This document shows positions 1 to 16,542 of a stretch of DNA of 64,000 nucleotides, piece by piece. A program made the translations under genes and the position numbers. The notes beneath the pieces were generated by a model. That model was not told the origin of the DNA. It searched no databases and worked only from the letters and a program-made list of their open reading frames with translations. Origin of the DNA: an uncultured Verrucomicrobiae bacterium (GTDB taxonomy: Bacteria > Verrucomicrobiota > Verrucomicrobiia > Limisphaerales > UBA11358); assembly GCA_963797825.1 (NCBI GenBank), contig CAWCRR010000041.1:24436-88435 (forward strand), given 5' to 3'. The stretch's first letter is position 1. Each line of letters starts with the position of its first letter.

Positions 1-4
1 AGGT

Positions 5-1156
5 ATGGGCAAAGTTATGAGTGAACTTATGAAAATTGCCGTTCCAAAAGAAACGTTCCTCGGCGAGACCCGCGCGCCCTTGACGCCGGATTGTGTCGCC
101 AAACTGGTTAAACTCGGCGCGGAAGTCGAAGTCGAATCCGGATTAGGCGTCACCGCGGGTTTTCCCGATGAGGTGTATGCGAAAGCCGGCGCCACCGTCA
201 CTCACGACCGCAAAAGCCTTATCAGTTCAGGCGACATCGTCTTGCGCCTTCGCAAACCCGCAATGGAAGAAGTGGCCCTGCTCAAATCCGGCTCGATCCA
301 CGTGAGCCAGTTGGATGCCTTCCGCGAAAAGGAATTGGTCCAAAAATTGGCCGACCGGGGTGTCAGCGCCATCAGCATGGATTTCATCCCGCGCACCACC
401 CGCGCCCAAAAGATGGATGAACTTTCCTCCCAGGCCAATCTCGGCGGATACGAAGCCGTCATCCTCGCCGCCCGCTATTCCAATAAGATTTTCCCCATGA
501 TGACCACCGCCGCGGGCACGATTTTGCCGGCAAAAGTTTTCATCATCGGCGTCGGTGTTGCCGGGCTGCAGGCGATCGCCACGGCCAAACGGCTGGGCGC
601 CAAAGTCACCGCGTACGACACGCGGCCCGTCGTGGAAGAGCAGGTCAAATCCCTCGGCGCCCAGTTCCTGAAGATGGACCTCGGCGAAACCGGCCAGACC
701 AAGGACGGCTATGCCAAGGCTTTGACCGAGGAACAGATCCAAAAGCAGCGTGCGGGGCTGAAGAAAACCTGTTCCGAATCCGATGTGGTCATCACCGCCG
801 CGCAGGTGTTTGGCCGCAAAGCGCCGATCCTGCTCACCGCCGATATGCTCGATTCTATGAAGCCCGGGTCCGTTGTGGTGGACTTGGCGGTTGAAACCGG
901 CGGCAATGTCGAAGGCGTCGTCTATGATCAGGTGACGGATCGCAAAGGCGTGAAGATCATCGGCATCGCCAATCTGCCCGGTCGCGTGCCGTTGCATGCC
1001 AGCCAGGTGTACGCGGCGAACCTGGAAAATTTCATCGAGGAATTTTGGGACAAAAAAACCAAAAATTTCGTCCTCAAACTGGACGACGACATTATCAAAA
1101 GCAGCCTCGTCACCCACGGCGGCAAGATTGTGAACGAAAAATTAAAGCAGAATTAA
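5..1156 (+). CDS. pntAA: NAD(P) transhydrogenase alpha subunit part 1 (PntAA, dI domain)
   Basis: 383-aa ORF. It has an alanine-dehydrogenase-like sequence with the Rossmann motif VFIIGVGVAGLQA and the typical N-terminus MKIAVPKE. The small alpha-2 and beta subunits follow directly. The real start may be the internal ATG at 29. Confidence 0.9.
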   Translation: MGKVMSELMKIAVPKETFLGETRAPLTPDCVAKLVKLGAEVEVESGLGVTAGFPDEVYAKAGATVTHDRKSLISSGDIVLRLRKPAMEEVALLKSGSIHVSQLDAFREKELVQKLADRGVSAISMDFIPRTTRAQKMDELSSQANLGGYEAVILAARYSNKIFPMMTTAAGTILPAKVFIIGVGVAGLQAIATAKRLGAKVTAYDTRPVVEEQVKSLGAQFLKMDLGETGQTKDGYAKALTEEQIQKQRAGLKKTCSESDVVITAAQVFGRKAPILLTADMLDSMKPGSVVVDLAVETGGNVEGVVYDQVTDRKGVKIIGIANLPGRVPLHASQVYAANLENFIEEFWDKKTKNFVLKLDDDIIKSSLVTHGGKIVNEKLKQN

Positions 1157-1163
1157 TTCATTT

Positions 1164-1439
1164 ATGGATACGAACATTCTTTTCATCTTCATCCTCGCCA
1201 TTTTCGTGGGGTTTGAAGTCATCTCCAAAGTGCCCTCCATGCTGCATACGCCGCTGATGTCCGGCACCAACGCCATTCACGGCATCATTTTATTCGGCGG
1301 CATCCTCGTGCTGGCCGACGCCACCACGCCGTTGTCGATGGCGCTTGGATTTGTCGCGGTGATCTTCGGTTCGGCGAATGTCTTTGGCGGTTTCATGGTC
1401 ACGGACCGCATGTTGCAAATGTTTAAGAAAAAGAAATAA
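1164..1439 (+). CDS. pntAB: NAD(P) transhydrogenase alpha subunit part 2 (PntAB, membrane)
   Basis: 91-aa hydrophobic ORF with three predicted helices. It sits 8 nt after pntAA and 3 nt before pntB, the canonical split-alpha arrangement. Confidence 0.85.
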   Translation: MDTNILFIFILAIFVGFEVISKVPSMLHTPLMSGTNAIHGIILFGGILVLADATTPLSMALGFVAVIFGSANVFGGFMVTDRMLQMFKKKK

Positions 1440-1441
1440 TC

Positions 1442-2857
1442 ATGAATTCCCTCATCGCTCTCATCTTCATCGGCGTTGCCGTCCTGTTCATCATCGGCAT
1501 CAAATTTTTGAGTTCGCCGAAAACCGCGCGGAAGGGTAATCTCATCGCCGCCGCGGGCATGATCATCGCCTTCTTTGCCCTGCACAAAGCCACCGGGGAA
1601 TCGGTCTGGACCCAGGGCTGGACGTTTAATTACACCCTCATCGCCATCGGCATCGTCATCGGATTGATCGTCGGGGCCATCGGCGCTTATTCAGTCAAAA
1701 TGACCGCGATGCCGCAAATGGTCGCGCTCTTCAACGGCCTGGGCGGCGGCGCGGCGGCCCTCGTGGCGAGCCTGGATTTTACGACTAATTCGCACAGCGC
1801 AGGACCAGTCCCGGCGTCCCTCACGGTCCCCATGCTCTTTGCCACGCTCATCGGCTCCCTGTCCTTTTCCGGCAGCATCATCGCGTATCTGAAACTCGAG
1901 GGAAAATTTGAAAAGCCCCATACGTTCCCCGGCCAGAATTTTCTGAACGGCTTGATCATGGTCGTCATCCTCGGCTTGTGCGGCTGGCTGACCATCAATG
2001 CGACCGGCAACAACGCCCTGACCGCCTTCATCGTTTTGTTTTCCTTGGCTTTGGTTTTTGGCGTCGCGATGGTCATGCCCATCGGTGGCGCGGACATGCC
2101 GGTGGTCATTTCGTTGCTCAACTCCTTTACCGGCCTGGCCGTCGCCGCGGACGGTTTTGCCATCAACAACCTCGCCATGATCGTGGCCGGAACGCTCGTC
2201 GGCTCCTCGGGCACGTTGCTCACGTTATTGATGTGCAAAGCGATGAACCGCCCGGTCACCAACGTCTTGTTCGGCGCCTTTGGCTCAGCCGGCGGCGCTG
2301 TCGCCGCGTCCAACGGCATTGCCGGAACGGTCAAACCCATCCAGGCGGACGAAGTTGCCCTGCTCTTGACTTATGCGCAGCGCGTCGTGGTGGTTCCCGG
2401 ATACGGCATGGCCGTGGCGCAGGCCCAGCATCAAGTGCGCGAACTCTCCGATGAACTCGGCAAGCGCGGCGTGGAAGTCCAATTTGCGATCCATCCCGTC
2501 GCCGGCCGCATGCCCGGCCACATGAACGTCTTGCTCGCCGAGGCGAATGTCCCCTACGACCAGCTCATCGAGATGGAGCAGATCAACCCTTCCATGGACC
2601 GCGTGGACGTCTGCCTGGTCATCGGCGCCAACGACGTCGTGAACCCTGCCGCGCGCGAGGAAAAAACCAGCCCGATTTACGGCATGCCCATCATCGAAGC
2701 CGACCATTGCAAATCCACCATCGTGATGAAACGCTCGATGGCCGCGGGCTTCGCCGGCATCGAAAATCATTTATTCTACAAAGACAATACCCGGATGCTG
2801 TTCGGCGATGCCAAGGCTTCCCTCAACGCGCTCGTCGCGGCGGTGAAAGCGAACTGA
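1442..2857 (+). CDS. pntB: NAD(P) transhydrogenase beta subunit (PntB)
   Basis: 471-aa ORF. The N-terminal half is polytopic membrane. The C-terminal dIII domain carries VVVPGYGMAVAQAQH and GANDVVNPAA motifs typical of PntB. Confidence 0.92.
   Translation: MNSLIALIFIGVAVLFIIGIKFLSSPKTARKGNLIAAAGMIIAFFALHKATGESVWTQGWTFNYTLIAIGIVIGLIVGAIGAYSVKMTAMPQMVALFNGLGGGAAALVASLDFTTNSHSAGPVPASLTVPMLFATLIGSLSFSGSIIAYLKLEGKFEKPHTFPGQNFLNGLIMVVILGLCGWLTINATGNNALTAFIVLFSLALVFGVAMVMPIGGADMPVVISLLNSFTGLAVAADGFAINNLAMIVAGTLVGSSGTLLTLLMCKAMNRPVTNVLFGAFGSAGGAVAASNGIAGTVKPIQADEVALLLTYAQRVVVVPGYGMAVAQAQHQVRELSDELGKRGVEVQFAIHPVAGRMPGHMNVLLAEANVPYDQLIEMEQINPSMDRVDVCLVIGANDVVNPAAREEKTSPIYGMPIIEADHCKSTIVMKRSMAAGFAGIENHLFYKDNTRMLFGDAKASLNALVAAVKAN
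2810..2857 (+). repeat. Direct repeat copy 1: last 15 codons plus stop of pntB
   Basis: This 48-nt string recurs at 3767-3814 with one difference (AAC to AAT, synonymous Asn). Aligned by eye base by base. Confidence 0.9.
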
Positions 2858-2947
2858 AGACCACCTCGCTCTGGCTTCTCGAAGTTTTTGAGGAGTCTCT
2901 CAGACAAATCAATTGCGCTGAAAGCGCCAAACCATCGTAGCCGGGGG

Positions 2948-2972
2948 CAACGCCCTCGGAATTAGGGCGTTG
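2948..2972. repeat. REP-like perfect hairpin downstream of pntB
   Basis: caacgccct / cggaatt / agggcgttg forms a 9-bp perfect stem with a 7-nt loop. There is no U-tract, so it is not a classical intrinsic terminator. Confidence 0.5.
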
Positions 2973-3049
2973 GGTCGTCTGCGCCCTGAGAGGGCACTCC
3001 AAAAGAACAAATGAAGAGCGCGTTTCTTAGCCTGTGCGCCACAAATTTT

Positions 3050-3460
3050 TTACGATAAAGGATCAAACAATTGGACGCCAGACGGTTCGAAGTGACGCTT
3101 GTTATGGGTGGCTATGATGTGACCGTTCTGCAAGGCGGTGGCCGCGATCAACGAGTCCTCACACGTCATAGTGCGGTTTTTGACTTTTAAATCAGCGATC
3201 AGTTCCTTCCACCGCACTAACACAGGTTCAGTTAATTCTTCAGTGGCTGGCCCAAACTGTAGTCTGGTATCAGCCAACCAGGCCGCCAGGCTTGCCTGGT
3301 GGGTGGCCGGGGCATGGTCCAATCCAAATTGCAACTCGGCCATCGAAACAATGCTTAAGAAAATATCAGCCTCGTTGCTTTTGACCCATGCCGCCAGTTT
3401 TGGGGGAATCTGCCTCCGCTCCAGCATGGACAAAATGTCCGTATCGATCAGAAAGCTCAC
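3050..3460 (-). CDS. vapC: PIN-domain toxin, VapC/FitB family
   Basis: 136 aa. It starts MSFLIDTDILS, with the first acidic PIN residue in context. It overlaps the upstream antitoxin ORF by 4 nt. Confidence 0.85.
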   Translation of the reverse strand: MSFLIDTDILSMLERRQIPPKLAAWVKSNEADIFLSIVSMAELQFGLDHAPATHQASLAAWLADTRLQFGPATEELTEPVLVRWKELIADLKVKNRTMTCEDSLIAATALQNGHIIATHNKRHFEPSGVQLFDPLS

Positions 3461-3705
3461 TTGAATGGCAACCGATGACGTTCAGGAGGTGGAATGGGTG
3501 ACGGACAGCGGGAAAACTGCTTGAGCAATCCAACGGCGCCCCGGCGTTTGCCCGGCTTTGGCGTCAGAACAATGCTGTTCTTGCCATCGCGCACCGGACG
3601 CACCTCCACCGTGCCGCCACCGGACAGTCCGGAAGCATCGCGCCACCATTTGGGCAAGGTGCTTTGGCCCACCTTGGAAACAGTCATGGTATCCAAATCT
3701 TTCAT
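3457..3705 (-). CDS. vapB: AbrB/SpoVT-type antitoxin (VapB)
   Basis: 82 aa. MTVSKVGQSTLPKWWRDASGL resembles the swapped-hairpin AbrB/MazE DNA-binding N-terminus. It is translationally coupled to the PIN toxin. Confidence 0.75.
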   Translation of the reverse strand: MKDLDTMTVSKVGQSTLPKWWRDASGLSGGGTVEVRPVRDGKNSIVLTPKPGKRRGAVGLLKQFSRCPSPIPPPERHRLPFK

Positions 3706-3707
3706 CC

Positions 3708-3740
3708 TTTAAGGATTCCTTAAATCGGCCCGCTTGTCAA
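3708..3740 (-). promoter_or_regulatory. Putative vapBC promoter/operator
   Basis: On the minus strand TTGACA (3735-3740) precedes an 8+1+8 perfect palindrome, tttaaggaNtccttaaa (3708-3724). The palindrome ends 3 nt before the vapB ATG. This fits an autoregulatory operator and a near-leaderless mRNA. Confidence 0.4.
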
Positions 3741-3766
3741 TCCTCGTCGTGGAGCCTCGTCGTGGA

Positions 3767-3814
3767 GCCAAGGCTTCCCTCAACGCGCTCGTCGCGGCGG
3801 TGAAAGCGAATTGA
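3767..3814 (+). repeat. Direct repeat copy 2: orphan pntB coding tail
   Basis: 47 of 48 nt are identical to 2810-2857, including the stop codon. A 12-nt tandem duplication (cctcgtcgtggag x2, 3741-3766) precedes it. Confidence 0.9.
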
Positions 3815-3872
3815 GCTTTAACTGCGAGTGATGCGGATTAATGTGGTCAATCATTCAGTTGGAGTCGGCGGA

Positions 3873-5152
3873 TCAAAGCAGCCGGCCAGAAATGATCGCC
3901 CGATATCGGGCGGGCTTGTCTTTTTTGACGTTCTCAATCACTCCTTCTTCCGTCAGTCTTGCCAGCCATTCTTTTGTTTGAGACCTGGTCACACCGAGGA
4001 GACTCATAATTTCCGCTTCAGTCCGGAAGGCGACAAGCTCGCGGCGGAGTATTTCACGCACAGTTTTGAAAAGCTCTTCGGCAATATCAGGCGTTTCACC
4101 GGCAATGTTGGAAGACCCGGCTGGCTTCACAGGTTGGTTGTAGGCAGCCGGTCGTTCCTGCAATGCGAATGAAAGAGATTCCTGTGTTGGTTCCGCGGCA
4201 ACCGACTCTAACGCGGCTGAAAGCGCTCCAGCCAATTTCCGCGGCGTTCCCCGGATTTGGCCACGCCAATCCGCCATGGTGAATGAGCGCCGAATTTCCC
4301 CGGCCCGAATTGTTTTCGTTTCGGACAAATACCGGAACAAAGTGAAATTTTTCAAGCTGCTCGATTGCTCCCGCCCACGTGCCGCCCGTTTCGAAATCGG
4401 AAGTCACGACCAAAGCTGCGTCTGCTATGGCGTAAATGACCTTGTTGCGTTGCATGGCATTGCCGACATTGAATCCCGCCGCCGGATCGTAAGGCGATAC
4501 AAGCAGCAGCCGGCGGTCCATGAGCGGCTCGCGATTTTCGTTGGCGATTGCCGCACGCTCAAGACTGTCGGCCATCACCGCCACTGCCTCGCCACCGGAT
4601 TGAAGCACACCGTTGATGGCGGCGCGATCAATGCCTTTAGCTCCGCCGGAAATCAGCGTCTGATGCGCCTCCGCGGCGAGTTTTCCAATCCCCTCCGTGT
4701 AACTGATAAGTTCTTCATCCACGTGGCGTGAGCCAACCACCGCCAATCCGCCCTTTTCCAGCAACGCCAAATCACCACAGCCATATAGCAGGGGTGGGGC
4801 ATCCTCCTTCAATCGTGTCTTCAGCCGTTTGGGATAAGATGGATCCGCCCGGCTGATGACCCAGTTGCTTCGGGCGCTCCATCGTTCGATGGCCTGACTC
4901 AATAAAAATCCTCGCCCCAACAAAGCTTCCAGTCTTTCACGCCCAAACTGTTGCGCGCAAAAATCGAGGAGATCGCCCGCGTCAGTCCCAAGCAAATCGG
5001 CGGGTTGTTTTTGTTTTTCACGCAAGAGGCGGGCGAGACTGATTATATTCGCCCAGGCTGAACAACTTTGGCGAAGGATCTCCGCGCCCGGCGATAAGCG
5101 GCGCGGTTAGCAGCAGGATGGCCTGCGTGTTCGATGTCAGCGGTGTGGTCAT
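3873..5152 (-). pseudogene. DprA/Smf-like DNA-processing protein (SLOG Rossmann domain plus C-terminal winged helix), frameshifted
   Basis: Three reading frames are needed. A 44-codon N-terminal piece ([19 protein letters not shown]..) runs from ATG 5152. The DprA core ([19 protein letters not shown]..) lies in ORF 4096..5025. The wHTH tail lies in ORF 3873..4355. The frame switches near 5025 and near 4230-4275. Confidence 0.7.
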
Positions 5153-7234
5153 TCGTCAGCGTTAGCGGTCGAGGCCAGGGCTATAGGATACACCGGCCCG
5201 CTGCCGTTTGAAAGCAACAGATAAGCCGCGACCGTCATCGTCCATCTTGAATCCACCATATCATCCACCAGCAGGACCGCGCCAGCCGGAATATTTGCCA
5301 CTGATCTTCAAGGAACCATCCACATTCCGCGCTTGTTGGCTGCTGTTTGCCATTTGTTTTTGTGCCGGGCGGTCATCCGGTCTTTTCCAGCAGCGGAATG
5401 GAATGGCAGATTTAATGCGGTAGCCAGCCGGCGGGCAAAGTCGCGGCACAAGAGTTCGGATGCCGGCGTGAGGGAATAAAAGCAACCCAAGCGGGCGCCG
5501 GTTGAGGTCGCCCAGGTCTTCACCATCGCCGCGCAGGCTTCGACCAATTGATCGGCAAATCGTCCGTCCTTCGATTTTCCCTTGGCGCACCAATGAACCC
5601 CAGCCCGCGTCGCCCCACATGCAAAGCACACGGCCAGATTGAGCCTGGCACTCCGGCGCAATTCGTCCGCTAATGCCCATTTGAGGCAGTCCGCCTGTTG
5701 GCCATTGACGGCGCGGTTCCAGCGGCAAACTCGTGCGGCGCAGAAATGCGACCGCTTCCCGCGCCAACCCGGCATCAAACGTGTCGGGCAAAGGTGCGAT
5801 ATTCGGAACATGATCGGGAACCGGGTCGCCATCTAATGCGCGAATGAGAAAGTTCCATGTGTCGGGATGTTAGCGCCACATATTCCAGCATCTGCTGTTG
5901 TTCGACGCGACGCAATCCAGTCAGTCGCTCCGCCCGCTCCCAAAATGCGGGAGACAGATTGGCTGTTGTCAAAGTCCATTTGTTTCCCTGCTTCACCGCC
6001 GGGGCGGGCGATTCCAACGATATCAATTGAAGAGCCTTTTCAATGCGCCCTCTCCGGATATTTGCCCGGCTTAATAGTTCATTGACGGAAAGTCCCCCGG
6101 ATGCGTCCCGGAGCGCGGATAGAAGCGATTCAACTTCTTCACGTGATGGAAACGCACTTTCAATGAAAAAATCATTGATGTCTGATTCTTCCACTCCACT
6201 GAGCAGCACCCCATGAGCCGCTGAAATTTGCCGTCCGGCGCGGCCCACCTGCTGATAGTAGGCGACTACGGAGCCGGGCGTTTGGTAATGAATCACAAAG
6301 GCGAGGTCTGGTTTGTCATAGCCCATGCCCAGGGCGGTGGTTGCCACTAAGGCTTTCACGCGATTTTCCAACAAGGCATTCTCCAGTTCAACGCGCCGTT
6401 CGCCGGTCTCGCCGCTGTAAGATTCCGCCCGAATACCTCGCGATTGCAGCCAGCGCGGCGACCTGGACCGCATCGCGCACAGTGAGCGTGTATACAATGC
6501 CACTGCCCGGAATTCCCGGCAGATGCGTTGCCAGCCATGCCATTCGGGCGGCTCTGGCTTGGCATCCGTATCGTCTGAAGAAGTAGCGAAGGCCGGCCCA
6601 ACTCACCACGCGATACTGTTAAATTCGGCCCAAGGATGATTTGCAAATCCTCAAGCACACGGTTGTTCGCTGTCGCCGTCGTGGCGAGCACGCGCAAATT
6701 CGGCGGCAATGTGCGAATCATTCGCTCGATAAGACGATAGTGTGGACGGAAATCATGGCCCCAATCCGAAATGCAGTGCGCCTCATCCACCACCAGTAAC
6801 GAGATGCGTCCCGCCACCGGCCTCAGTACCTCCGCGCGGAAGTGCCCATTCGCCAACCGTTCCGGCGCAACGAGCAGAATGTCCACCTCATTACGGGCCA
6901 GTGCCCCCTCCACACTTTTCCATTCTTCCTGATTCTCAGAATTGATGGTGACCGCTCGAACACCCATCCGATGGGCCGCCACAATCTGGTTTCGCATCAG
7001 CGCCAAAAGCGGCGATATCAGAATGGCCGGCCCCAGACCCTGTTCTCGCAATAATTTAGCCGCAATAAAATAAACGAAGCTTTTTCCCCAACCAGTTCTT
7101 TGCACGACCAACAATCGACCGCGTCCATCGACGACATGCTGAATGGCGTTCGCCTGCCCTTCGTGAAATGCAGCCGCTGGATTCTGCGTGCCGAGGCGCA
7201 GCAATTCGAGGGCGCGTGTTGGGTTATAAGGCAA
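5149..7234 (-). pseudogene. RecQ-family helicase fused to a ComF-like phosphoribosyltransferase domain, multiply frameshifted
   Basis: ORF 6356..7234 carries helicase motifs, including DEAH (VVDEAHCISDWGHDFRPHY). ORF 5775..6503 carries the helicase C domain (ATTALGMGYDKPD, QQVGRAGR). The PRTase-like tail (VLLVDDMVDSRWTMTV) is visible only in a further frame at 5149-5290. At least five frame changes are needed. Its stop overlaps the dprA-like ATG (ATGA). Confidence 0.7.
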
Positions 7235-7262
7235 GGGGATTAGTTCTTATCACCGCGCGCAC

Positions 7263-8939
7263 TTATTTAACGTCCATCGGCGTTATTTTGACAAAATAAA
7301 CGTCATTCTGTCGCATGTCGAAGCTGCGCACGAAAGGCTTGCCGGATTCAATCTGTATTGTCTCCACCGATGTCGGGTCGCCACTGCTTGACTTTCGCAG
7401 AATTCCAACCTGGCCCGGCGTCAATTGCGAGGGCGCGCCGAGGTCGAGATAGCTCGTGTAAACATCGTTTACGCGATAGCCCGTCTGGTAAATTTCCAGG
7501 GAATAGCTTCCGGCGGGAAGATTGGCGATGTTCAGCACCGCCCGGCCAATCGGTTTGGTGGGTATCTCATTTTTATAAAATTGCTGATCGTTCGTTCCTG
7601 CCGGCGGGACAATCGGCGTATAATCCCAAAACAGGGCCTGTACGGAATGATCCGGGCCGGTGCAGACCCAGGACGCCGGGTCGGTATCGACGAGTTCGGT
7701 CGGTCCCAGTTCATTCAGGAATTTGAATGAATAGAAGGCCGGCTTTTTCAGGTCCTCGTAGTTGATCAGGCCGAAACCGCCGTGGAACGGTGTCATCCGC
7801 GGCCCACCCTCTTCAAAAATATCCGTGAACACCCAGTACGACATCGAGTCCACCGAACGATAGGCGCCCTTGACCTTGCTCAGGATAAAGGCCGCCTGCT
7901 GGTACGTGTCGTGCATGAAGTCCGTGGGTGTGTAGGCCGAACTCCATTCCGTGAAATGCAGTGGCAGGCCGGGCAGGGGCGACCGGTCAATCATCTGGCG
8001 CTCCCCGGTCATCCGGCCAATCACTGAATTGGTGTCGGAATCGATCACGGTTCCCCGCTGACCCGTCGCATCCAGATACCCGCTCTTGACACCATACGAA
8101 TGGGACGAGACAAAATCGAGCGGCACGTGGTTGGTATAACAATAGTTGACGAACGATTCGTCCCAGCGGCCGATGGCCGTGGCCGGCCCGCCCACCCGGT
8201 AATCCGGCGAGACGCTCTTGATGGCGTTGGCCGTGACGGTGTACAGCTTGAAATAATCGTCTTTCGAGCCGGTCCAGAAACCGCCCATCAAATCGGGCTC
8301 ATTCCAAACCTCGAAGTACCAGGTCTTCACCTCGTCCTTTCCATAGCGCTCCTGGAAGTGGCTGACCAGATTGCTGATCAAGTTGCCCCATTTGTCATAC
8401 GATTTCGGCGGGGTCACATTGCCGTTCCACCAAAAAATGGTTTTCTTGCCACTGGCCAAAGCGTTGGGCATGAACGAAAGTTCGACAAACGGTTTCACGT
8501 TGATGCTGAGCAGAAAATCATAGAGCGGGTCGATGTATTGCCAATTGTAAATGGGATTGCCGTTAGCATCTTCCTTGTAAACGCCCATGTCATCGCAGAG
8601 CAATCCATGCATGCGGATATATCGGAAGCCGCAGTCGCGCTGCGCCTCCCGCAACTGGTCCTGCCAATCCGCGCGCAGTCCTTCGTTGGCCCGGCCGGCG
8701 CCGATGCACTCCTTGAAAGACGTGTCCAGCGGCCCCTGCACCGCGTTCACATCCACGGAAATTACCCGGACCGGCCCATTTGTTTCTGCCGCCGCGCCCA
8801 TGCCCGGCCCCGCCATGTCCTGGCTGTTCGATTCTCCATTTGAAGACCGGCAACCTGTCAAAGCGAATGCCGTGACTCCCACTGCCAGCATCGTGGCCAA
8901 AGCACAGAACGATTTTTGTAAAATAAGATTTTTCGTCAT
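7263..8939 (-). CDS. Glycoside hydrolase family 39 (beta-xylosidase-like), lipoprotein signal
   Basis: 558 aa. The signal ends in LTGC. The GH39 signature region is FVELSFMPNAL ... WYFEVWNEPDL ... RVGGPATA. Confidence 0.8.
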   Translation of the reverse strand: MTKNLILQKSFCALATMLAVGVTAFALTGCRSSNGESNSQDMAGPGMGAAAETNGPVRVISVDVNAVQGPLDTSFKECIGAGRANEGLRADWQDQLREAQRDCGFRYIRMHGLLCDDMGVYKEDANGNPIYNWQYIDPLYDFLLSINVKPFVELSFMPNALASGKKTIFWWNGNVTPPKSYDKWGNLISNLVSHFQERYGKDEVKTWYFEVWNEPDLMGGFWTGSKDDYFKLYTVTANAIKSVSPDYRVGGPATAIGRWDESFVNYCYTNHVPLDFVSSHSYGVKSGYLDATGQRGTVIDSDTNSVIGRMTGERQMIDRSPLPGLPLHFTEWSSAYTPTDFMHDTYQQAAFILSKVKGAYRSVDSMSYWVFTDIFEEGGPRMTPFHGGFGLINYEDLKKPAFYSFKFLNELGPTELVDTDPASWVCTGPDHSVQALFWDYTPIVPPAGTNDQQFYKNEIPTKPIGRAVLNIANLPAGSYSLEIYQTGYRVNDVYTSYLDLGAPSQLTPGQVGILRKSSSGDPTSVETIQIESGKPFVRSFDMRQNDVYFVKITPMDVK

Positions 8940-9070
8940 AAAAATGGGGATTAAATGAATTCACTTCCAAAGTTGCAGTCCGAACCGCCACAGGTCTAGC
9001 TTTTTTAATTTCAATCACCGGTCTCCAACTGATTTTTGGGCTAACAGCCCGTTAAAAAATTCATTTAATT

Positions 9071-9148
9071 GTAGGAGGCGAGGTAACGAGTCTCAAATTG
9101 AATTGTGTTTTCAGACATCGCTTAGAGCCTCCTTACGTCGTCTCCCAC
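9071..9148. repeat. Inverted pair of GTAG-type 25-nt REP units (family E)
   Basis: gtaggaggcgaggtaacgagtctc (9071-9094) faces agagcctccttacgtcgtctcccac (9124-9148). Related units lie at 19681, 22806 and 23877. Confidence 0.6.
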
Positions 9149-9253
9149 TTTTTAAACAAACTCCTGACCTTTGGCAAAAATTGGTGAACATTTGGCTCAA
9201 CAAGGTTGGTCTCAATCTTTCCCGGAACGATAATTCATCAAACCCATATTCTT

Positions 9254-10562
9254 ATGAACCAGAAAACCCGATTCGATCTGGAACAGGCCGATATTCCCGC
9301 CGCCTGGTATAATCTCAACGCCGACTTTCCCGAACCTTTGCCGCCGCCGCTGCATCCGGGCACCGAAGAGCCGCTGCCGCCGGAAGCGCTGGAGGCGATT
9401 TTTCCGCGCAACCTCATCGAGCAGGAACTCAGCCGCGAAAAGTGGATTGAAATCCCCGACCCGGTGCGCGACATCTATGCGCTCTGGCGGCCCACGCCGT
9501 TGCTGCGCGCCGTGCGATTGGAGCGGGTCCTGAATACCCCGGCGCATATTTATTACAAATACGAAGGCGCCAGCCCCGCCGGCAGCCATAAGGTCAACAC
9601 CTCCGTCGCCCAGGCCTATTACAACAAGATCGCCGGCACCAAACGGCTGGCCACCGAGACCGGCGCGGGCCAATGGGGCGCCTCGCTGGCGTTCGCGTGC
9701 AGCCTGTTCGGCCTGCAATGCAATATCTACATGGTCCGGGTCAGCTACGACCAAAAACCCTATCGCCGGATGCTCATGCACACCTGGGGCGCGCACCGTC
9801 CACGCCAGCCCGAGCGACCAGACGGAATACGGACGCAAACTCCTGGCCGAAGACCCGAAATGTCCCGGCAGCCTCGGCATCGCCATCAGCGAAGCCATCG
9901 AGGACACCGTCAAGACGCCCGACACCAAGTACTCTCTGGGGAGCGTTTTGAACCATGTCTGCCTGCACCAGACCGTCATCGGCGAGGAATCTCTCAAGCA
10001 AATGGAAAAGGCCGGCGAGGAACCGGATGTGATCTTTGGCTGTTGCGGCGGTGGCAGCAATTTCGCCGGGCTGGCCTTTCCGTTCATCGCAAAAAAAATC
10101 CGCAACGGAAAAAAATACCGCCTCGTCGGCGTCGAGCCGACGGCGTGTCCGTCGCTGACGAAAGGCGAATTGCGTTACGATTTCGGCGACACGGCGGAAT
10201 CCACGCCGCTGCTGAAAATGTTCACCCTCGGCCACAAATTCATTCCGCCCAGCATCCACGCCGGCGGTCTGCGTTACCACGGCATGTCCCCGATGGTCAG
10301 CCACGCCCTCAAACTCGGCCTCATCGAAGCGGAGGCGTACCACCAGACAAAAATTTTTGAAGCGGCGATTTTGTTCGCGCGCAACGAAGGCATCGTCCCC
10401 GCGCCGGAATCCGCGCACGCCATCGCCGCCGTCGTGAACGAAGCCGCGAAATGCCGCGAGTCGGGCCAAAAGAAGGTGCTTCTCTTCAACCTCTCCGGCC
10501 ACGGGCTGCTCGATTTGAGTTCGTACGAAAATTACTTGCAGGGAAAAATTCAGGACGCTTAA
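9254..10562 (+). pseudogene. TrpB2-type tryptophan synthase beta-like PLP enzyme, single frameshift
   Basis: The N-terminal part lies in ORF 9206..10360 (HKVNT PLP-lysine context, ETGAGQWG). The rest lies in the frame of ORF 9948..10562 ([11 protein letters not shown]). The frames switch at about 9788-9797, just after HTWGA. This may be a sequencing error. Confidence 0.75.
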
Positions 10563-10573
10563 ACCCAAAATAA

Positions 10574-11455
10574 ATGAAAATTAAATTGATTCTCCTGGCC
10601 GCCGTTTGCGGATTGGCCTTCTCCCTCCACGCGCAATTGCCCGTGGGGAGCCATTACCCCACCGGCGCGGAAGGCATCAAAGGCGCCTCCCTTCCGCGGC
10701 CGGGAATTTACCTGCGCGACTACAATTTTTTCTACAACGCCAACAAGGTGGACGGCATGCCGAATGGCCCGGACATTTTCGCCTACGTCCAGGCGCCACG
10801 CCTGATCTGGATCACCCCCTGGAAAATCCTTGATGCGAATTATGGCATGGATGTCATCGTGCCCTTCGCTTACAAGAACATCGCCGCGCCCTTTGGCGAC
10901 GCGCATCAATTCAATCTCGGCGACATCCAGGTCGAACCGCTGGTCCTCTCGTGGCACTTCAAGCAATTCGATGCCGCCGCCGGTTACGCGATTTGGGTGC
11001 CGACGGGTGAATTTGACGCCAGTACGCCCGCGAAATATCTCAGCAGCGCCGGAAACGGTTTTTGGACGGACATGCTCACCCTCGGCGGCGTCTGGTATCC
11101 CGACCAGAAAAAAACCTGGGCGTTTTCGCTGTTAAACCGTTACGAAATCAACAGCCGCCAGGAGCACACGCACGTGACGCCGGGCGAAATGCTCACCATG
11201 GAATGGGGCCTGAGCAAAACCGTGATGCCTGGTGTGGACGTCGGCCTGGCCGGCTATTACCAGCAACTCGTCACCAAAGACAGCGGCGCGGGCGCATCGC
11301 CGCATTATTCCGACGTCGTCGGCGTCGGCCCGGAAGTCAGCGCGTTCTGGCCGAAAATCAAGACCTTCACGTCGCTCCGCTACGCTTACGAAGTGACCGC
11401 CCGCAATCGCCCGCAAGGCCAGACCACCGTGCTGACCATCACCAAAATATTTTGA
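10574..11455 (+). CDS. Outer-membrane beta-barrel transporter (MetA-pathway/phenol-degradation-like family)
   Basis: 293 aa with a signal peptide and an alternating beta-strand pattern. There is a C-terminal aromatic residue (..ITKIF). The family call comes from overall resemblance only. Confidence 0.55.
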   Translation: MKIKLILLAAVCGLAFSLHAQLPVGSHYPTGAEGIKGASLPRPGIYLRDYNFFYNANKVDGMPNGPDIFAYVQAPRLIWITPWKILDANYGMDVIVPFAYKNIAAPFGDAHQFNLGDIQVEPLVLSWHFKQFDAAAGYAIWVPTGEFDASTPAKYLSSAGNGFWTDMLTLGGVWYPDQKKTWAFSLLNRYEINSRQEHTHVTPGEMLTMEWGLSKTVMPGVDVGLAGYYQQLVTKDSGAGASPHYSDVVGVGPEVSAFWPKIKTFTSLRYAYEVTARNRPQGQTTVLTITKIF

Positions 11456-11467
11456 CGGTTAAATATT

Positions 11468-11491
11468 CTTTGCGTCTTTGCGTCTTTGCGT
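11468..11491. repeat. Tandem 8-mer (ctttgcgt x3) 12 nt upstream of trpB
   Basis: Read directly from the sequence. The same motif occurs as cgcaaagac near 29165. Confidence 0.8.
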
Positions 11492-11503
11492 GAGAATTGA
11501 ACA

Positions 11504-12718
11504 ATGAGTTCGGTTTTCGCAGACAATTTGCCCGACGCCCAGGGCCATTTCGGTCCCTACGGCGGACGTTATGTGCCGGAGACGCTGATGCACCCGCTGA
11601 AAGAGTTGGAAGAGGAATATTTCCGCGCGCAGCATGATCCGGAATTCCAACGCGAACTTTCCTATTATCTCACGGAATTCGTCGGGCGCCCCACCCCGCT
11701 TTATTTTGCCGAACGCCTCACCAAAGACGCCGGCGGCGCGAAAATTTATCTCAAGCGCGAAGACCTCAACCACACCGGCGCGCACAAGATCAATAACGCC
11801 ATCGGCCAGGTCCTCGTCGCCAAACGGATGGGCAAGACGCGCGTCATCGCCGAGACCGGCGCGGGCCAGCATGGCGTGGCCACGGCCACCGTCGCGGCGA
11901 TGTTCGGCTTGAAATGCTGTATCTACATGGGCGCGGTGGATTGCCGGCGGCAGGAGTTGAACGTCTATCGCATGAAGATGCTCGGCGCGGAAGTCGTGGC
12001 CGTCCATGCGGGACAAAAGACCTTGAAGGAAGCTGTCAACGAGGCCATGCGCGATTGGGTAACGAACATCCGCGACACGCATTACATCCTCGGCACCGCT
12101 TACGGCGCGCATCCCTATCCCGTCATGGTGCGGAATTTCCAGCGCGTCATCGGCGATGAAGCCCGCGCGCAGATTTTGGAAAAGGAAAAGCGGCTGCCGG
12201 ACATGCTCATCGCCTGCGTCGGCGGCGGCTCGAATGCCATCGGCCTGTTCTATCCGTTCCTCGAGGACAAATCCGTGAAGCTCGTCGGCGTGGAAGCAGG
12301 TGGGTTGGGCATCAAACCCGAGCAGCACGCCGCGCGGTTCCAGGGCGGCTCCCTCGGCGTGTTGCAGGGAACGCGCAGTTACATTTTGCAGGACGAATTC
12401 GGCCAGATCCAATCCACCCACAGCGTCAGCGCCGGATTGGATTATGCCGCTGTGGGCCCTGAACACGCCTGGCTGCGCGACGCCAGCCGCGCTGAATACA
12501 CCTACGCCACCGATGCCGAAGCGCTCGAAGGTTTTATGAAACTCGCGCGCCTCGAGGGCATCATTCCCGCGCTCGAAAGCGCGCACGCCATCGCCGAAGT
12601 CATGAAGCGCGCGCCGAAAATGGGCAAGAATGCGCTCATCATTGTGAACCTTTCCGGCCGCGGCGACAAAGACGTGGAGCAGGTCGCGAAGAAATTGAAA
12701 TTGAAGATGCCGAAGTAA
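11504..12718 (+). CDS. trpB: Tryptophan synthase beta chain
   Basis: 404 aa. Motifs are [14 protein letters not shown] (PLP lysine), [10 protein letters not shown] and GGGSNAIG. The protein is full length and intact. Confidence 0.95.
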
Positions 12719-12725
12719 TCGGCTA
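12659..12725 (+). repeat. trpB tail repeat R1 (last 19 codons, stop and 7 nt)
   Basis: This 67-nt segment is repeated at 13133-13199 (about 63/67 identical). A deleted form lies at 13783-13828. Confidence 0.9.
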
Positions 12726-12736
12726 ATTTAGATTAA

Positions 12737-12949
12737 ATGAAAAGAAATTTTACTGCCGTTGTAAAACAGGATGAAGGCTGGTGGATTGGCTGGATTGCGG
12801 AAATTCCCGGGGTCAATTCCCAAGGCAAATCCCGCGCCGAACTTTTGAAAAATTTGCGATCGGCATTGAAAGAAGCATTAGAATTTAACCGCGACGACGC
12901 ACTCGCTGCAGCAAAAACCGATTACGAAGAAGAGCCGATCTTCGTGTGA
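12737..12949 (+). CDS. hicB: HicB-family antitoxin
   Basis: 70 aa. FTAVVKQDEGWWIGWIAEIPGVNSQGKSRAEL is the typical HicB/UPF0150 N-domain. It overlaps the hicA start by 4 nt (GTGA). Confidence 0.8.
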   Translation: MKRNFTAVVKQDEGWWIGWIAEIPGVNSQGKSRAELLKNLRSALKEALEFNRDDALAAAKTDYEEEPIFV

Positions 12950-13131
12950 AGCGGCGCGAGCTAATCCGGCATTTGAGCGCACATGGATGCGTGCTTATCC
13001 GCGAAGGCAGCGATCATTCATGGTGGGGAAATCCGGCAGCCAACCGCCGCTCCGCTGTGCCGAGACATAACGAAATAAACAAATTTCTTGCGCGAAAAAT
13101 TTGCCGCGACCTGGGAATTCCAGAGCCGTGA
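12946..13131 (+). CDS. hicA: HicA-family mRNA interferase toxin
   Basis: 61 aa with a GTG start. LIRHLSAHGCVLIREGSDHSWW..VPRHNEI fits the HicA/YcfA pattern. Confidence 0.8.
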   Translation: MKRRELIRHLSAHGCVLIREGSDHSWWGNPAANRRSAVPRHNEINKFLARKICRDLGIPEP

Positions 13132-13132
13132 G

Positions 13133-13199
13133 CGCGGCGACAAAGACGTGGAGCAGGTGGCGGCCAAATTGAAATTGAAGATGCCGAAGTAATCGGCTA
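13133..13199 (+). repeat. trpB tail repeat R2 (orphan coding tail)
   Basis: It starts 2 nt after the hicA stop. It would encode [19 protein letters not shown]-stop. It differs from R1 by one synonymous change and one replaced codon. Confidence 0.9.
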
Positions 13200-13209
13200 T
13201 TTTATTTTC

Positions 13210-13770
13210 ATGCTTGCGGCAGCTAAACATCGCTTTAGTGTGAAGGAATATTACCGGATGGCGGAAACAGGCGTTTTGCCTTCCAATGCCCGTGTCGAAT
13301 TGCTGAATGGCGAAATCATTGATATGTCACCTATCGGCCCCTTTCATGGCGGAATCACAAAATATTTGAGTAAAATCTTTTTTGGGGCCGCCCAGGGCCG
13401 CTGGATCACGCAAGTCCAGGACCCGGTGCGTTTGGACGATTATTCCGAACCTGAGCCGGACATTGCGCTGCTCAAGCCGATTTCTGATTTTTACCGCAAG
13501 CGGCATCCGCAGCCGGAAGATGTCTTTCTGTTGATTGAAGTCTCCGACACCAGCCTGGAAGCTGATCTTGAACAAAAGCTGCCCGCCTATGGCCGCGCGG
13601 GAATTGTCGAAGTCTGGATTGTGAACCTCAATGCGGCGACGGTTGAAATTTATCGGGAGCCAAACTTCACCGGCTACGGCAGCAAAGCCGTTTTGCGCGC
13701 GGGCGACCAGGCCCAACCGCTGGCGTTTCCCGACGTTGCCGTGGATGTGGCCGAACTGCTGAAACGGTGA
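13210..13770 (+). CDS. Uma2-family (DUF820) putative restriction-endonuclease-like protein
   Basis: 186 aa. The YYRMAE..G....RVELL.GEII.MSP start and the PEPDIAL...E(V)..(S) core are typical of Uma2 proteins. Confidence 0.75.
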   Translation: MLAAAKHRFSVKEYYRMAETGVLPSNARVELLNGEIIDMSPIGPFHGGITKYLSKIFFGAAQGRWITQVQDPVRLDDYSEPEPDIALLKPISDFYRKRHPQPEDVFLLIEVSDTSLEADLEQKLPAYGRAGIVEVWIVNLNAATVEIYREPNFTGYGSKAVLRAGDQAQPLAFPDVAVDVAELLKR

Positions 13771-13782
13771 ACCTCTCTCGGG

Positions 13783-13828
13783 CCGCGCGACGAAGACATG
13801 GAGCAGGTGGCGGCCGAAGTAATCGGCT
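13783..13828 (+). repeat. trpB tail repeat R3 (decayed, 20-nt internal deletion)
   Basis: It shares the gtggcggcc variant with R2. It lacks aaattgaaattgaagatgcc and ends in gaagtaatcggct like R1 and R2. Confidence 0.8.
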
Positions 13829-13895
13829 GATTTGGATTATGTGAAAAGCAATTTTGCTGCCGTTGTAAAACAGGATGGTTCTAATCCGCGAAGGT
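13829..13895 (+). pseudogene. Remnant of a second hicB-hicA copy
   Basis: gatttggattatGTGaaaagcaattttgctgccgttgtaaaacaggatgg matches the R1-hicB junction and the first 13 hicB codons. It is then fused to ctaatccgcgaagg, which resembles hicA codons around LIREG. Confidence 0.65.
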
Positions 13896-13995
13896 CTCTA
13901 ATACTTCAATGATAACCGCCAGAAACACACATTGCGTAGATGAATTTTGAAATATTTTTTGTCCTTTAACAACCTGCTATTGAAGGACTTTTGAC

Positions 13996-15243
13996 TTAAT
14001 GAATACGAATCATGCCAGCATTCCAAACGTCAAGAGTTCCTTTGACACAAAGGATGACACTGGGAAGGATTAAGCCAAGGATCAGACATAACCACATGAA
14101 ATAACTCGTCCAGCACTGGCTTTTTGCGGGCAAAGGCCTCGGAAAATCCGGTGTGACACCTGCCGCAAGCATGCGGTCATAAAGATTAGGATGAATCTTT
14201 GTGGACAACGATGACATCACCGCTGGAGAGCCATTGGATTCATAAAGACGGGCAAGGGCGCGCGCATAGATGGCGCCATCCACCTGAAAATCTCCGACGA
14301 TCTTGTCAGCTCGTTTTTCCATGCTGCGCGCTACGCGGATCACAACGATCCACAAAACAAATATCCCGATGACGAGAAAACCAAACGTGGCAGTGCCATT
14401 GTCGCCAAGCGAAAGAAGTGGCCGGCAAAAAATCCATGGAAAGAAAATGAATGAACCCAATAATCGGATGAACAGCACAACTTTTGGTTCGTCCAAATGT
14501 CCCAACTCATGCGCGCAGACCGCTTGTATTTCATCGTCATTGAGGATGGAAATCAATTTATCGGTGAAAAGTAATTGGCGCTCTAGGGGAAAGGCTGCGG
14601 CATTTGCCACATACGTTGACAAAATCCATGACTTACGGACCGGCACGCCTAATTTTTGAGAGGCCTCGGCCACGAGCGCATTCAAATGGTCCGTGGCTGG
14701 TCGCAACAAACCGAACCATTTCAGGATCAGCAGCCCCAATCCGAAGCGAAAAGCCAGGATCGTAAGAAAGACACCTGTGGCGAAAATCCAAGTGGTAAGG
14801 CCAAAATGGTCGGGCATGGCGAAAGCCGTGACGACTATCAACAACCACATGGGGATAATTAACAACAGACCTGCGGCCAGAAGATGCAACCAAAGTCTAA
14901 AACGTAGCGGGGGGTGCAACTCACGGCTCAAAAAATAGCCGGCAAACACAGCGCCCAGGAACGCGGATATAGCCACCACTAAAATTTGAATCCCTGAAAA
15001 AAAATAACAACACACCAGTGTTAGATTTAACGGGATCAACCAGGTATTCAGGCTGGCGGACTTTGCAACGGGATAGGACAATCTGGCCCGCTCAGTCCAG
15101 TGCTTGCCAACGCTCCTGCGCCAGGGAATAAGCGCAAGCCAGTTCAAACTCCAGGACAACACAAAGGCGATGCAAAAACTTCCGACTGTCAGCGCCAAAA
15201 ACATTGCTGTTGAATAGCAATTTGCTTTAACCAAGTCCAGCAT
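13996..15243 (-). CDS. M48-family membrane zinc metalloprotease
   Basis: 415 aa with multiple TM helices. It carries the HExxH motif in the context AVCAHELGHL. Confidence 0.75.
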   Translation of the reverse strand: MLDLVKANCYSTAMFLALTVGSFCIAFVLSWSLNWLALIPWRRSVGKHWTERARLSYPVAKSASLNTWLIPLNLTLVCCYFFSGIQILVVAISAFLGAVFAGYFLSRELHPPLRFRLWLHLLAAGLLLIIPMWLLIVVTAFAMPDHFGLTTWIFATGVFLTILAFRFGLGLLILKWFGLLRPATDHLNALVAEASQKLGVPVRKSWILSTYVANAAAFPLERQLLFTDKLISILNDDEIQAVCAHELGHLDEPKVVLFIRLLGSFIFFPWIFCRPLLSLGDNGTATFGFLVIGIFVLWIVVIRVARSMEKRADKIVGDFQVDGAIYARALARLYESNGSPAVMSSLSTKIHPNLYDRMLAAGVTPDFPRPLPAKSQCWTSYFMWLCLILGLILPSVILCVKGTLDVWNAGMIRIH

Positions 15244-15301
15244 CGCAAAAAGGCAATTGTTTCATCTCGACATGGATATCTCAAAACCGAACATTCATTG
15301 A

Positions 15302-15670
15302 ATGAACCAATCTCTCACCACCCGCATCGCCGCCATCGCCGGCTTTCTCGCCGTCGCGCTCGGCGCATTCGGCGCGCATGGATTAAAGGGATTGCTCGCG
15401 CAGAACGGGACGGCCACAATTTGGGAAAAGGCGGTCTTCTATCATTTCATCCACGCCGTCATGTTGTTCGTGTTGGCGGATCGAAAACCCTTTCCAGCGG
15501 TCGCCTGGTGGAGCTTCCTCCTCGGAATTATTTTTTTTAGCGGCTCACTTTATTTGCTGGCGGTGACGGATGTCCTTTGGCTCGGCGCGGTGACGCCGAT
15601 CGGCGGCGTCAGTTTTCTGGTGGGCTGGGGATTCCTGGTCTTCAAATCTTCGCGGACGGAAATCAAATAA
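15302..15670 (+). CDS. DUF423 (YgdD-like) small membrane protein
   Basis: 122 aa with four hydrophobic helices. LGAFGAHGLK and YHFIHA motifs are characteristic of DUF423. Confidence 0.75.
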   Translation: MNQSLTTRIAAIAGFLAVALGAFGAHGLKGLLAQNGTATIWEKAVFYHFIHAVMLFVLADRKPFPAVAWWSFLLGIIFFSGSLYLLAVTDVLWLGAVTPIGGVSFLVGWGFLVFKSSRTEIK

Positions 15671-15825
15671 TTGGGGAGCGCACGCGCCTCGCGTGCTGTT
15701 TCGCGCGCCCTCGCGTGAAACATCTTCGCCCTTTCAGCATTTTCCTGATTTAGGGCCTTAACGATAATTGAGGCCCTTGACCGGGCGCAACTCCGGTGTA
15801 AATTTCCCATCGAAAAGGAGTTTTT

Positions 15826-16542
15826 ATGAAAAGATACTGTCTGGCAATCGTCTCATGCCTTTGCCTGGGCGCCACGGCGGCGCAGGCGCAATATAATAAT
15901 CCCCCGCCCCCGCCGAATGGTCCCCCGCCAGGGGAGGGAATGTATATTCTCCCGCCGGACATGGGCCTCTATTTTCGCGGGGCCGTAGGGCCGTCTTTTT
16001 ATCAGGATGGCCGGCTCACCTATTTCGGCGGCCCGGTCAGCAGCCCGGTGCATTATGATACCGGCGTCGCGGCCGATGCTGCCGTCGGATGGGCGTTCAA
16101 CCGCTATGTCTCCGTCGATTTCCAAACCGGATTTCAAGGTGCGCGAATTGATGATGTGCCGGGATATTCTCAATATCATTCAGACGTGTATGACGTGCCG
16201 TTCATGGGCAACATAACGCTGTCGTATCCCATCCCGCGCACCTTTCTTGAGCCGTATATCGGCGGCGGGGCCGGCGGGGCCGACACCTATTTCCATGCGC
16301 ATGATTTCAGCGACGGCGTCACCACGGTATATGGCGAGGAAAACGACGTGGTCTATGCCTGGCAAGTGTTTGGCGGCTTGCGTTTCCGGCTGGCTCCCAA
16401 CATGTGGCTGGGGGCGGAATATAAATATTTCACCACCGGCGATACCAGTTACAGCTATCCTCCCAGCCCGAATTTCAACGTCGGGTTCGATGGCGTGCGT
16501 ACGCACTCGGTCCTGTTTACCTTCGAATGGATGTTCTGGTGA
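15826..16542 (+). CDS. Outer-membrane beta-barrel domain protein
   Basis: 238 aa with a signal peptide and a proline-rich linker. It has amphipathic strands and the C-terminal FTFEWMFW aromatic signature. Confidence 0.6.
   Translation: MKRYCLAIVSCLCLGATAAQAQYNNPPPPPNGPPPGEGMYILPPDMGLYFRGAVGPSFYQDGRLTYFGGPVSSPVHYDTGVAADAAVGWAFNRYVSVDFQTGFQGARIDDVPGYSQYHSDVYDVPFMGNITLSYPIPRTFLEPYIGGGAGGADTYFHAHDFSDGVTTVYGEENDVVYAWQVFGGLRFRLAPNMWLGAEYKYFTTGDTSYSYPPSPNFNVGFDGVRTHSVLFTFEWMFW

Follow-up and report, generated by a model that had tools for sequence, protein, structure and literature searches.

The 64,000-nt stretch of DNA analysed here (the window), part of contig CAWCRR010000041.1 of an uncultured Verrucomicrobiae bacterium, carries an intact pntB gene followed by a spacer, by a vapBC toxin-antitoxin (TA) operon on the opposite strand and by a second copy of the last 48 nt of pntB (Table 1). 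We regard it as very probable that this arrangement was produced by insertion of the vapBC cassette with a long duplication of the pntB tail. The first copy of the tail (copy 1) keeps pntB whole, and the second (copy 2) is an orphan tail, situated beyond the far side of the cassette. The nearest relatives of the encoded PntB protein are found in metagenome-assembled genomes of Verrucomicrobiia (83-87% amino acid identity).

The two tail copies, separated by 909 nt, are identical at 47 of 48 positions, the sole difference being AAC in copy 1 and AAT in copy 2. This repeat had been noticed in an earlier inspection of the letters alone (the sequence-only reading), and it stands: a search with the 48-mer at up to three mismatches returned exactly two sites in the window and none in 100 shuffles, and the blastn E-value of the repeat is 3e-20. 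The similarity begins abruptly at G2810 and G3767 and ends at the stop codon, also as described at that time. The silent nature of the single change had been taken as a sign that both copies evolved as coding sequence; however, 26% of random single changes in the 48-mer are silent, and this argument was abandoned. The AAT of the orphan copy is a codon common in relatives, and the two copies share the rare variants TCC and AAA.

The genes between the copies form the minus-strand AbrB/PIN operon that the sequence-only reading had recognised, both products scoring above the Pfam cut-offs: VapC matches PF01850 with 35.8 bits (cut-off 23.6; profile positions 2-114 of 120) and VapB matches PF04014 with 31.6 bits (cut-off 24.7). 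The vapB gene lies directly upstream of vapC and overlaps it by 4 nt (3457-3460). VapC has 720 homologs, the nearest being 75-81% identical and of the same length (136 aa, as in hundreds of them), and an 82-aa antitoxin gene is located upstream of homologous vapC genes in three of the compared loci (L201, L202 and L204), the same pair being present also in L205. Judged by these matches, the cassette is a solitary type II TA system, VapBC (FitAB-like), of about 0.9 kb, with predicted toxicity and a predicted addiction function. The three nearest VapC homologs examined are found in unrelated contexts without flanking repeats, namely between a MocA oxidoreductase gene and trpF, beside a glyoxalase gene and beside rpiB.

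The palindrome and the -35-like hexamer upstream of vapB (Table 1) are likely the operator and promoter of the vapBC operon, although a simple consensus scan found no full promoter. The TTGACA hexamer together with TTAAGGAATCCTTAA is also present upstream of homologous vapBC pairs in L201, L204 and L205; since there is no similarity beyond these motifs, 3708-3740 marks the inner limit of similarity to homologous cassettes. On the other side, the spacer carries a terminator-like stem on the minus strand (2915-2927). The sequence-only reading had described a hairpin of the repetitive extragenic palindromic (REP) type between the copies, but the fold of the spacer is not unusual (z = -1.5) and its core is single-copy in the window, so that this description was dropped. 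The tandem 13-mer at the junction of cassette and orphan matches pntB at 11 of 13 positions (2635-2647), adjoining the position at which the longer duplication in L151, described below, starts; it may be filler at the junction, or else what is left of a duplication of some 220 nt that has lost 162 nt internally.

No integrase or transposase gene was seen between the copies by the sequence-only reading, and indeed the list of open reading frames (ORFs) and the Pfam matches contain no recombinase-like ORF in 2858-3766, nor in positions 1-16000 as a whole. A 25-nt imperfect inverted pair (3056-3080 and 3687-3711) falls within the coding sequence at the ends of vapC and vapB. Its interpretation as the ends of a transposon or a miniature inverted-repeat transposable element was rejected because of its coding location, its absence from homologous cassettes and the long and variable duplication.

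Table 1. Features of the pntB and trpB loci in the window
Feature	Position	Strand	Basis
pntB, NAD(P) transhydrogenase beta subunit, intact, 471 aa	1442-2857	+	Pfam PNTB E=3e-180, profile positions 3-455 of 456
Tail copy 1, functional: last 15 pntB codons AKASLNALVAAVKAN and TGA	2810-2857	+	Repeat comparison, 48-mer search
Spacer from pntB stop to vapC stop, 192 nt, small hairpins	2858-3049		Single-copy, not a repeated element
vapC, PIN-domain toxin (FitB-like), 136 aa	3050-3460	-	Pfam PIN E=1e-8
vapB, AbrB/MazE-type antitoxin, 82 aa	3457-3705	-	Pfam MazE_antitoxin E=2e-7
Palindrome TTTAAGGATTCCTTAAA (3708-3724) and -35-like TTGACA (3735-3740)	3708-3740	-	Read from sequence
Tandem 13-mer CCTCGTCGTGGAG, two perfect copies at the cassette/orphan junction, abutting copy 2	3742-3767	+	Repeat search
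Tail copy 2, orphan pntB tail	3767-3814	+	Outside any ORF of at least 40 aa in the pntB frame
Rest of island, absent from relatives: wHTH/DprA-like genes, split DEAD/Helicase_C ORFs, GH39 glycosidase	3815-9253		Synteny with L190, L194, L100, L129; Pfam
trpB, host gene of second array	11504-12718	+	Pfam PALP; 82-92% identity to relatives
Unit A: tail A 12659-12730, hicB 12737-12949, hicA 12946-13131	12659-13131	+	Repeat and Pfam
Unit B: tail B 13133-13204 (93% identical to A), Uma2-family nuclease gene 13210-13770	13133-13770	+	Repeat and Pfam
Unit C: decayed tail with 20-nt deletion, first 37 nt of hicB, hicA fragment	13767-13894	+	Repeat comparison

A degenerate search of metagenomes for the AKASLNALVAAVKA coding tail yielded 120 contigs of this clade. 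The empty sites that the sequence-only reading had asked to look for are present among the relatives: in four of them (L190, L194, L100 and L129) the pntB stop is followed after 97-170 nt by a homolog of the window gene starting at 9254, with one tail and no cassette, the gene order being pntB, the trpB2-like gene (the 9254 gene), a porin gene and trpB. Thus, the whole segment 2858-9253 (6.4 kb) is inserted DNA in the window, and the orphan pntB tail is located inside this island, with vapBC to its left, rather than beside the native downstream DNA. These relatives belong to other species, and the DNA to the right of the orphan (3815-9253) is also absent from them. The tail of pntB is repeated downstream in three of 109 metagenome loci and, among 81 sequences (80 GTDB loci and the window), in the window, L043 and L058, the latter two from two other phyla; a repeat without inserted genes was never seen in either set. 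The idea of a mobile unit inserted at pntB was therefore upheld as to the insertion, by relatives with one tail and no cassette, but not as to a self-mobile element, for which a recombinase, inverted ends and a common att core are lacking.

The remainder of the island encodes a winged helix-turn-helix ORF overlapping a DprA/SLOG-like ORF (3873-5025), DEAD and Helicase_C domains distributed among two or more ORFs (5775-7234) and a GH39 glycosidase (7263-8939), and several of its genes look frameshifted. The trpB2-like gene beyond it (9254-10562) has a 1-nt insertion at about 9794 in comparison with three relatives, which splits it into two frames and may be a sequencing error or the mark of a pseudogene.

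An independent metagenome contig (L151) has the order pntB, tail, vapC (minus), vapB (minus) and orphan tail, i.e. the same place and orientation as in the window; its spacer, homologous to that of the window, measures only 61 nt. Its orphan tail, 212 nt long and 96% identical to its functional tail, agrees with four naive relatives (L105, L114, L133 and L174) in the TGA stop, in the codon variants and in the hairpin downstream of pntB, while the functional copy has a unique GCGAAA...TAG end followed by other sequence. Since the orphan has the stop and the hairpin of the naive relatives, it is clearly the recipient's own resident tail, the functional tail having come with the insert. The proposal of a replacement tail and an orphaned native tail is thus supported in L151 and, at trpB, in L194 (see below). 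In the window itself the two copies are too alike for the imported one to be singled out, and the assignment of donor and recipient there is conjectural.

The vapBC pairs of the window and L151 share only 45-46% amino acid identity, whereas the pntB genes are about 90% identical in DNA, and closer homologs of VapC occur in unrelated contexts. It follows that the end of pntB has been used independently, by different members of one cassette family and with duplications of 48 and 212 nt; a single ancestral insertion for both loci was considered and is not supported by the cassettes (45% amino acid identity). A copy of the L151 cassette with 97% identity is present in a different context in L209.

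A second array of tail-plus-cassette units lies behind trpB in the window (12644-13894). The sequence-only reading had pointed to the same architecture there, and the parallel is real, except that three tail copies are present and not two. The first two units carry a hicBA pair and a gene of an Uma2-family nuclease, and unit C is a remnant of an older tail-hicBA unit with an internal hicBA deletion. The possibility that tail C represents an ancestral '...AEVIG*' end was rejected, as relatives end with ...AAKVKLEMPK* and copy C is decayed, with its 20-nt deletion.

In three relatives (L135, L170 and L194) a single RhuM-family gene is enclosed by two copies of an 85-89-nt trpB tail, and the cassette/orphan junction is identical in all three. 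The tail copies of L135 are 99% identical. The functional tail of L194 codes for AAKVKLEMPK, like that of L135, but towards its 3' end the orphan codes for ADKVGLQMPK, a sequence that serves as the functional allele in L148; L194 and L135 also have different DNA downstream. The common junction, the L148-type allele in the orphan and the different downstream DNA place a crossover inside the orphan tail of L194. The simplest reading of these sequences is that tail, cassette and the start of the orphan were moved together to a new background, by one crossover in trpB and one in the orphan. Among the RhuM relatives at trpB, the functional tail allele travels with the cassette. Pairs of the hicBA type are found at the end of trpB with other junctions as well (L134, L095 and L163). 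In L134 and L095 TrpB is shortened to ...KIKL* and hicB, 78-81% identical to the window hicB, starts 31 nt later; both contigs stop before the region where an orphan tail could appear.

A general scan of 2.08 Mb of sequence for repeats with one copy covering a gene end, in line with a search suggested by the sequence-only reading, recovered the cases already described and returned further duplicated 3' ends bracketing TA pairs in L058, L043 and L101. In L058, from Dehalococcoidia, a 49-nt pntB tail is duplicated around an MNT and HEPN pair (11326-12180), and in L043, from a cyanobacterium, a 315-nt pntB end surrounds T5orf172, DUF433/DUF5615 and methyltransferase genes (4525-7468); with pntB tail duplications in these two loci, the architecture has arisen independently in other phyla. 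In L101 the duplicated segment is the 102-nt tail of a putative helicase gene (an unannotated 749-aa ORF, 8956-11205, minus strand), which brackets a ribbon-helix-helix (RHH) antitoxin and a PIN toxin (8185-9056); the pair is convergent with the helicase gene, as vapBC is with pntB in the window, and the stop codon of the PIN gene abuts that of the helicase gene. A 98-nt pntB tail is duplicated around a 5.3-kb island in L083, and a mirror image is found in L175, where two copies of the trpB head enclose a DUF2204 nucleotidyltransferase pair. The duplicated-tail architecture therefore recurs at several genes and in three phyla. Its cargo is mostly TA-like (PIN/AbrB, PIN/RHH, HicAB, MNT/HEPN, DUF433/DUF5615 and the DUF2204 pair), with RhuM and Uma2 genes in addition. 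Two other results of the scan were discarded, L015 as a low-complexity AATTACG run that is not a tail duplication and L166 for want of a clear host gene, and L144 has only a weak 25-nt match.

The DUF2204 cassette consists of a small ORF and the nucleotidyltransferase gene and is about 760 nt long (L083 8620-9387; L175 578-1335; L098 3056-3810). It keeps the same two ends, a left one about 10 nt before CTTGCTTTGCC and a right one formed by its own stop codon, in each of three contexts, where it follows immediately on the pntB stop, precedes an orphan pntB tail or stands between two trpB head copies. The first of these contexts is seen in six loci (L081, L087, L098, L134, L158 and L178); in L154 the cassette was recognised by protein match only.

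The proximal boundary of the duplications varies between 48 and 315 nt before the stop codon, even at one site, the repeats at pntB alone being 48, 49, 98, 212 and 315 nt long. The distal boundary, by contrast, falls at most 1 nt from the stop codon in five of the eight independent cases (window pntB, L151, L058, L135/L194 and L101) and never before it, and L151 and L135 have different stop codons in their two copies. A boundary tied to the stop and differing stops are expected if the copies come from two lineages and resemble each other only as far as coding sequence is conserved; this pattern agrees less well with staggered cutting of one genome or with a site-specific att.

None of about ten bracketed cassettes has a recombinase gene in it or beside it. 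No att core is shared among them, the repeats being different host sequences (pntB tail, trpB tail, trpB head and helicase tail) of 48-315 nt, and no terminal inverted repeats are conserved among homologous cassettes. Neither array has an integrase ORF nearby as in integrons, and the bounding repeats are the tail of the host gene, the comparison having been made without a formal search with attC models.

Elsewhere in the window several other repeats and transposase-like genes were seen. An IS200-like Y1 transposase gene with a weak Pfam Y1_Tnp match (55533-56258, minus strand) has on either side a direct copy of a palindrome-rich segment about 150 nt long (55375-55527 and 56158-56315), and 55375-56315 looks like a REP-associated tyrosine transposase unit. 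Two repeats of about 430 nt that look non-coding (49364-49788 and 53477-53910) lie 4.1 kb apart and are 94-97% identical; a third, incomplete copy is at 53210-53327, and related shorter repeats are at 19877-20010, 51010-51064 and 57553-57677. A 478-aa ORF with N-terminal HTH_32/HTH_28 domains (47124-48560) looks like a transposase of the insertion sequence type and is the sole transposase-like gene of its type seen in the window, 43 kb from the pntB cassette. A run of 21-24-nt repeats at 25792-25939 would, if in frame, encode a Gly/Trp/His-rich peptide repeat.

These loci bear on the question of how solitary TA pairs enter chromosomes without a mobility gene. The data fit a passenger cassette that has no recombinase of its own and would be moved by the recombination machinery of the host, and we lean, with modest confidence, towards a mechanism in which the cassette travels by host recombination, with the orphan tail as its portable homology arm from then on. 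First, DNA from a cassette-bearing relative would recombine homologously within a conserved gene. The other end would then be joined inside the 3' end of the resident gene, this first joint being conjectural, and only products that rebuild a complete gene would survive, giving the order of incoming functional tail, cassette and resident tail. Once formed, the orphan tail might act as a right-hand arm, and a double crossover, in the gene body on the left and in the orphan on the right, could place the cassette in any relative that has the gene, whatever its downstream DNA. Repeated rounds would stack tail-plus-cassette units into arrays, as at trpB. The direct repeats would at the same time invite deletion of the DNA between them, so that cassettes which kill on loss should persist; addiction would thus guard the cassette against such deletion, the duplicated gene end being its built-in homology arm. 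Natural recombinants (L194 in comparison with L135, and L151), with a functional tail that came along with the cassette, a resident orphan and a crossover inside the orphan, point to this model.

Several points weigh against this interpretation. None of the 120 contigs is from the same species, the best tail match being 45 of 48. The sampled loci were centred on pntB, and their counts are not genome-wide rates. The two copies in the window are one base apart and have rare variants in common, so that duplication in situ or gene conversion fits them equally well, and the toxicity and addiction of these pairs are themselves predictions from sequence. For homology-facilitated illegitimate recombination, the reported outcome is deletion of recipient DNA and not its duplication. 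Finally, random illegitimate joints would give looser and less reproducible cassette ends than those seen: the ends of the DUF2204 cassette are the same in three contexts, and in co-oriented cassettes the distance from the host stop is 18-30 nt and that to the orphan 0-25 nt. Such reproducible ends keep in play a Campbell-type circle, or else some other precise process.

In the Campbell-type alternative, which we consider unlikely, a circle carrying the cassette and the gene tail would enter through one homologous crossover with the resident tail, giving tail-cassette-tail directly; such a circle might arise, for example, by excision from a tail-cassette-tail donor through recombination between the repeats. 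The mosaics of L194 and L151, the arrays of tail-plus-cassette units and the inherited junctions are all predicted by it, and the right end of the DUF2204 cassette of L083 abuts the start of the pntB tail, while elsewhere the left end abuts the pntB stop, as a circular permutation would give. However, neither a circular form nor its junction was seen, the origin of the first tail-plus-cassette circle is left unexplained, and the same cassettes occur in other contexts without an attached host tail. Moreover, homologies of 48-72 bp are near the lower limit for a RecA-dependent single crossover.

A site-specific origin, with the repeats as attL and attR of a small non-autonomous element served by a tyrosine or serine recombinase in trans, seems quite improbable. 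Replacement of a gene 3' end by an incoming element is classical for integrases, as for phage 21 and e14 in icd, and the cassette ends are reproducible across contexts. Against it stand the lack of a recombinase at the bracketed cassettes, the want of a common core in repeated segments whose length ranges from 48 to 315 nt and differs even at one site (48 and 212 nt at pntB), and a distal boundary that follows the stop codon and not a motif.

Of a similarly low probability is a true long target duplication at insertion, in which staggered breaks 48-300 nt apart would be filled in and both copies would derive from the recipient. The near identity of the window copies and of those of L135, together with the rare variants common to the former, is what it would give, and it is the model put forward in the restriction-modification (RM) literature (PMC2853133). 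In L151, L135 and L194, however, the stops or alleles differ between the copies and match the functional alleles of other lineages, and a distal boundary at the stop in most cases is not expected from random staggered breaks. Furthermore, the toxins of the cargo are mostly RNases (PIN, HicA and HEPN), and the idea of double-strand breaks made by a restriction enzyme is inapplicable to them. An assembly artefact, through a chimeric join or a mis-assembled repeat, can be set aside as extremely improbable: frameshifts in conserved genes (the trpB2-like gene and the split helicase) make base-level errors possible, but the same architecture is present in independent assemblies from other samples (L151, L135, L170, L194, L058 and L101), the window copies differ by one base and both junctions read through unique sequence.

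Returning to the passenger cassette moved by host recombination, a wider generalisation is tentative: orphaned ends of conserved genes may possibly be portable arms that make addiction cassettes (TA, RhuM and Uma2) recombinase-free insertion units, and the cases in the RM literature would then probably belong here too. If general, this would be a recombinase-free route by which selfish or defence genes cross species boundaries at highly conserved genes. Ordinary homologous recombination would bring units of this kind into naive genomes, where they would pile up behind conserved genes in arrays like those of integrons, and portable arms would explain the 25-year-old 'insertion with long target duplication' independently of DNA cleavage by the cargo.

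Integrase-mediated 3'-end integration with a replacement tail is known for phage 21 and e14 in icd and for islands targeting tRNA genes. The loci described here resemble it in the incoming functional end, the orphaned native end and the direct repeats, and differ from it in having no integrase, no fixed att core, a repeat length that varies at one site and an insert of less than 1 kb. Homology-facilitated illegitimate recombination, which is said to operate in naturally transformable bacteria, is similar in that foreign DNA integrates with a homologous anchor in a conserved gene and a second, illegitimate joint nearby; to our knowledge, duplication of the end of the anchor is not a described outcome of this process.

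In the literature searched, a limited collection, we met with no account of TA cassettes that have duplicated coding tails on both sides. The closest precedent is insertion with long target duplication, described for RM systems (Nobusato et al. 2000, Gene 259:99; Furuta, Abe & Kobayashi 2010, PMC2853133) and stated in reviews for RM systems only. In those cases there are no mobility genes, the direct repeats are long and variable (from >30 to about 420 bp) and single in the empty-site genome, and several phyla are represented; one example in H. influenzae has a 46-bp repeat overlapping the 3' end of a gene, and the authors, for whom the mechanism was unknown, tentatively blamed DNA breakage by the restriction enzyme (PMC2853133). 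The present loci share with them the addiction-type cargo, the lack of mobility genes and the long variable repeats. By the measures of Furuta et al. 2010, the direct repeats exceed 30 bp (48 bp at pntB and 72-87 bp at trpB), and the insert, which should be under 20 kb without mobility genes, is 909 nt with only vapB and vapC. The cargo, however, is not an RM system but PIN and MazE/AbrB, and the window locus is therefore a variant of long target duplication and not a member as first defined. The cargo of the other loci likewise comprises type II/VII TA pairs and single genes (RhuM and Uma2), the duplicated segment is a coding tail (or head), the copies may differ in allele and the units stack. 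Since the toxins are mostly RNases, breakage by the cargo cannot be the cause here, and RNase-type TA modules with the same architecture thus remove the explanation by restriction cuts.

Chromosomal integrons carry TA cassettes in arrays (PMC13108822), and the array at trpB resembles them in its compact, often promoter-less and co-oriented cassettes behind one entry point, TA genes among them. Unlike in integrons, the repeated unit is the host gene's own tail, and no IntI was found and no attC noted, the latter without a formal model search. Similar in cargo and setting are the TA islets of Belot et al. (2026, PMC13617665), solitary pairs which lie without mobility genes between core genes, have a high turnover and are regarded as selfish elements spread by recombination at the core genes that flank them; one TA system there is flanked by a duplicated 24-bp res-like palindrome, and duplicated gene ends are not described. 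In those islets two flanking core genes serve as homology arms, whereas at pntB and trpB a duplicated piece of one gene may provide the second arm.

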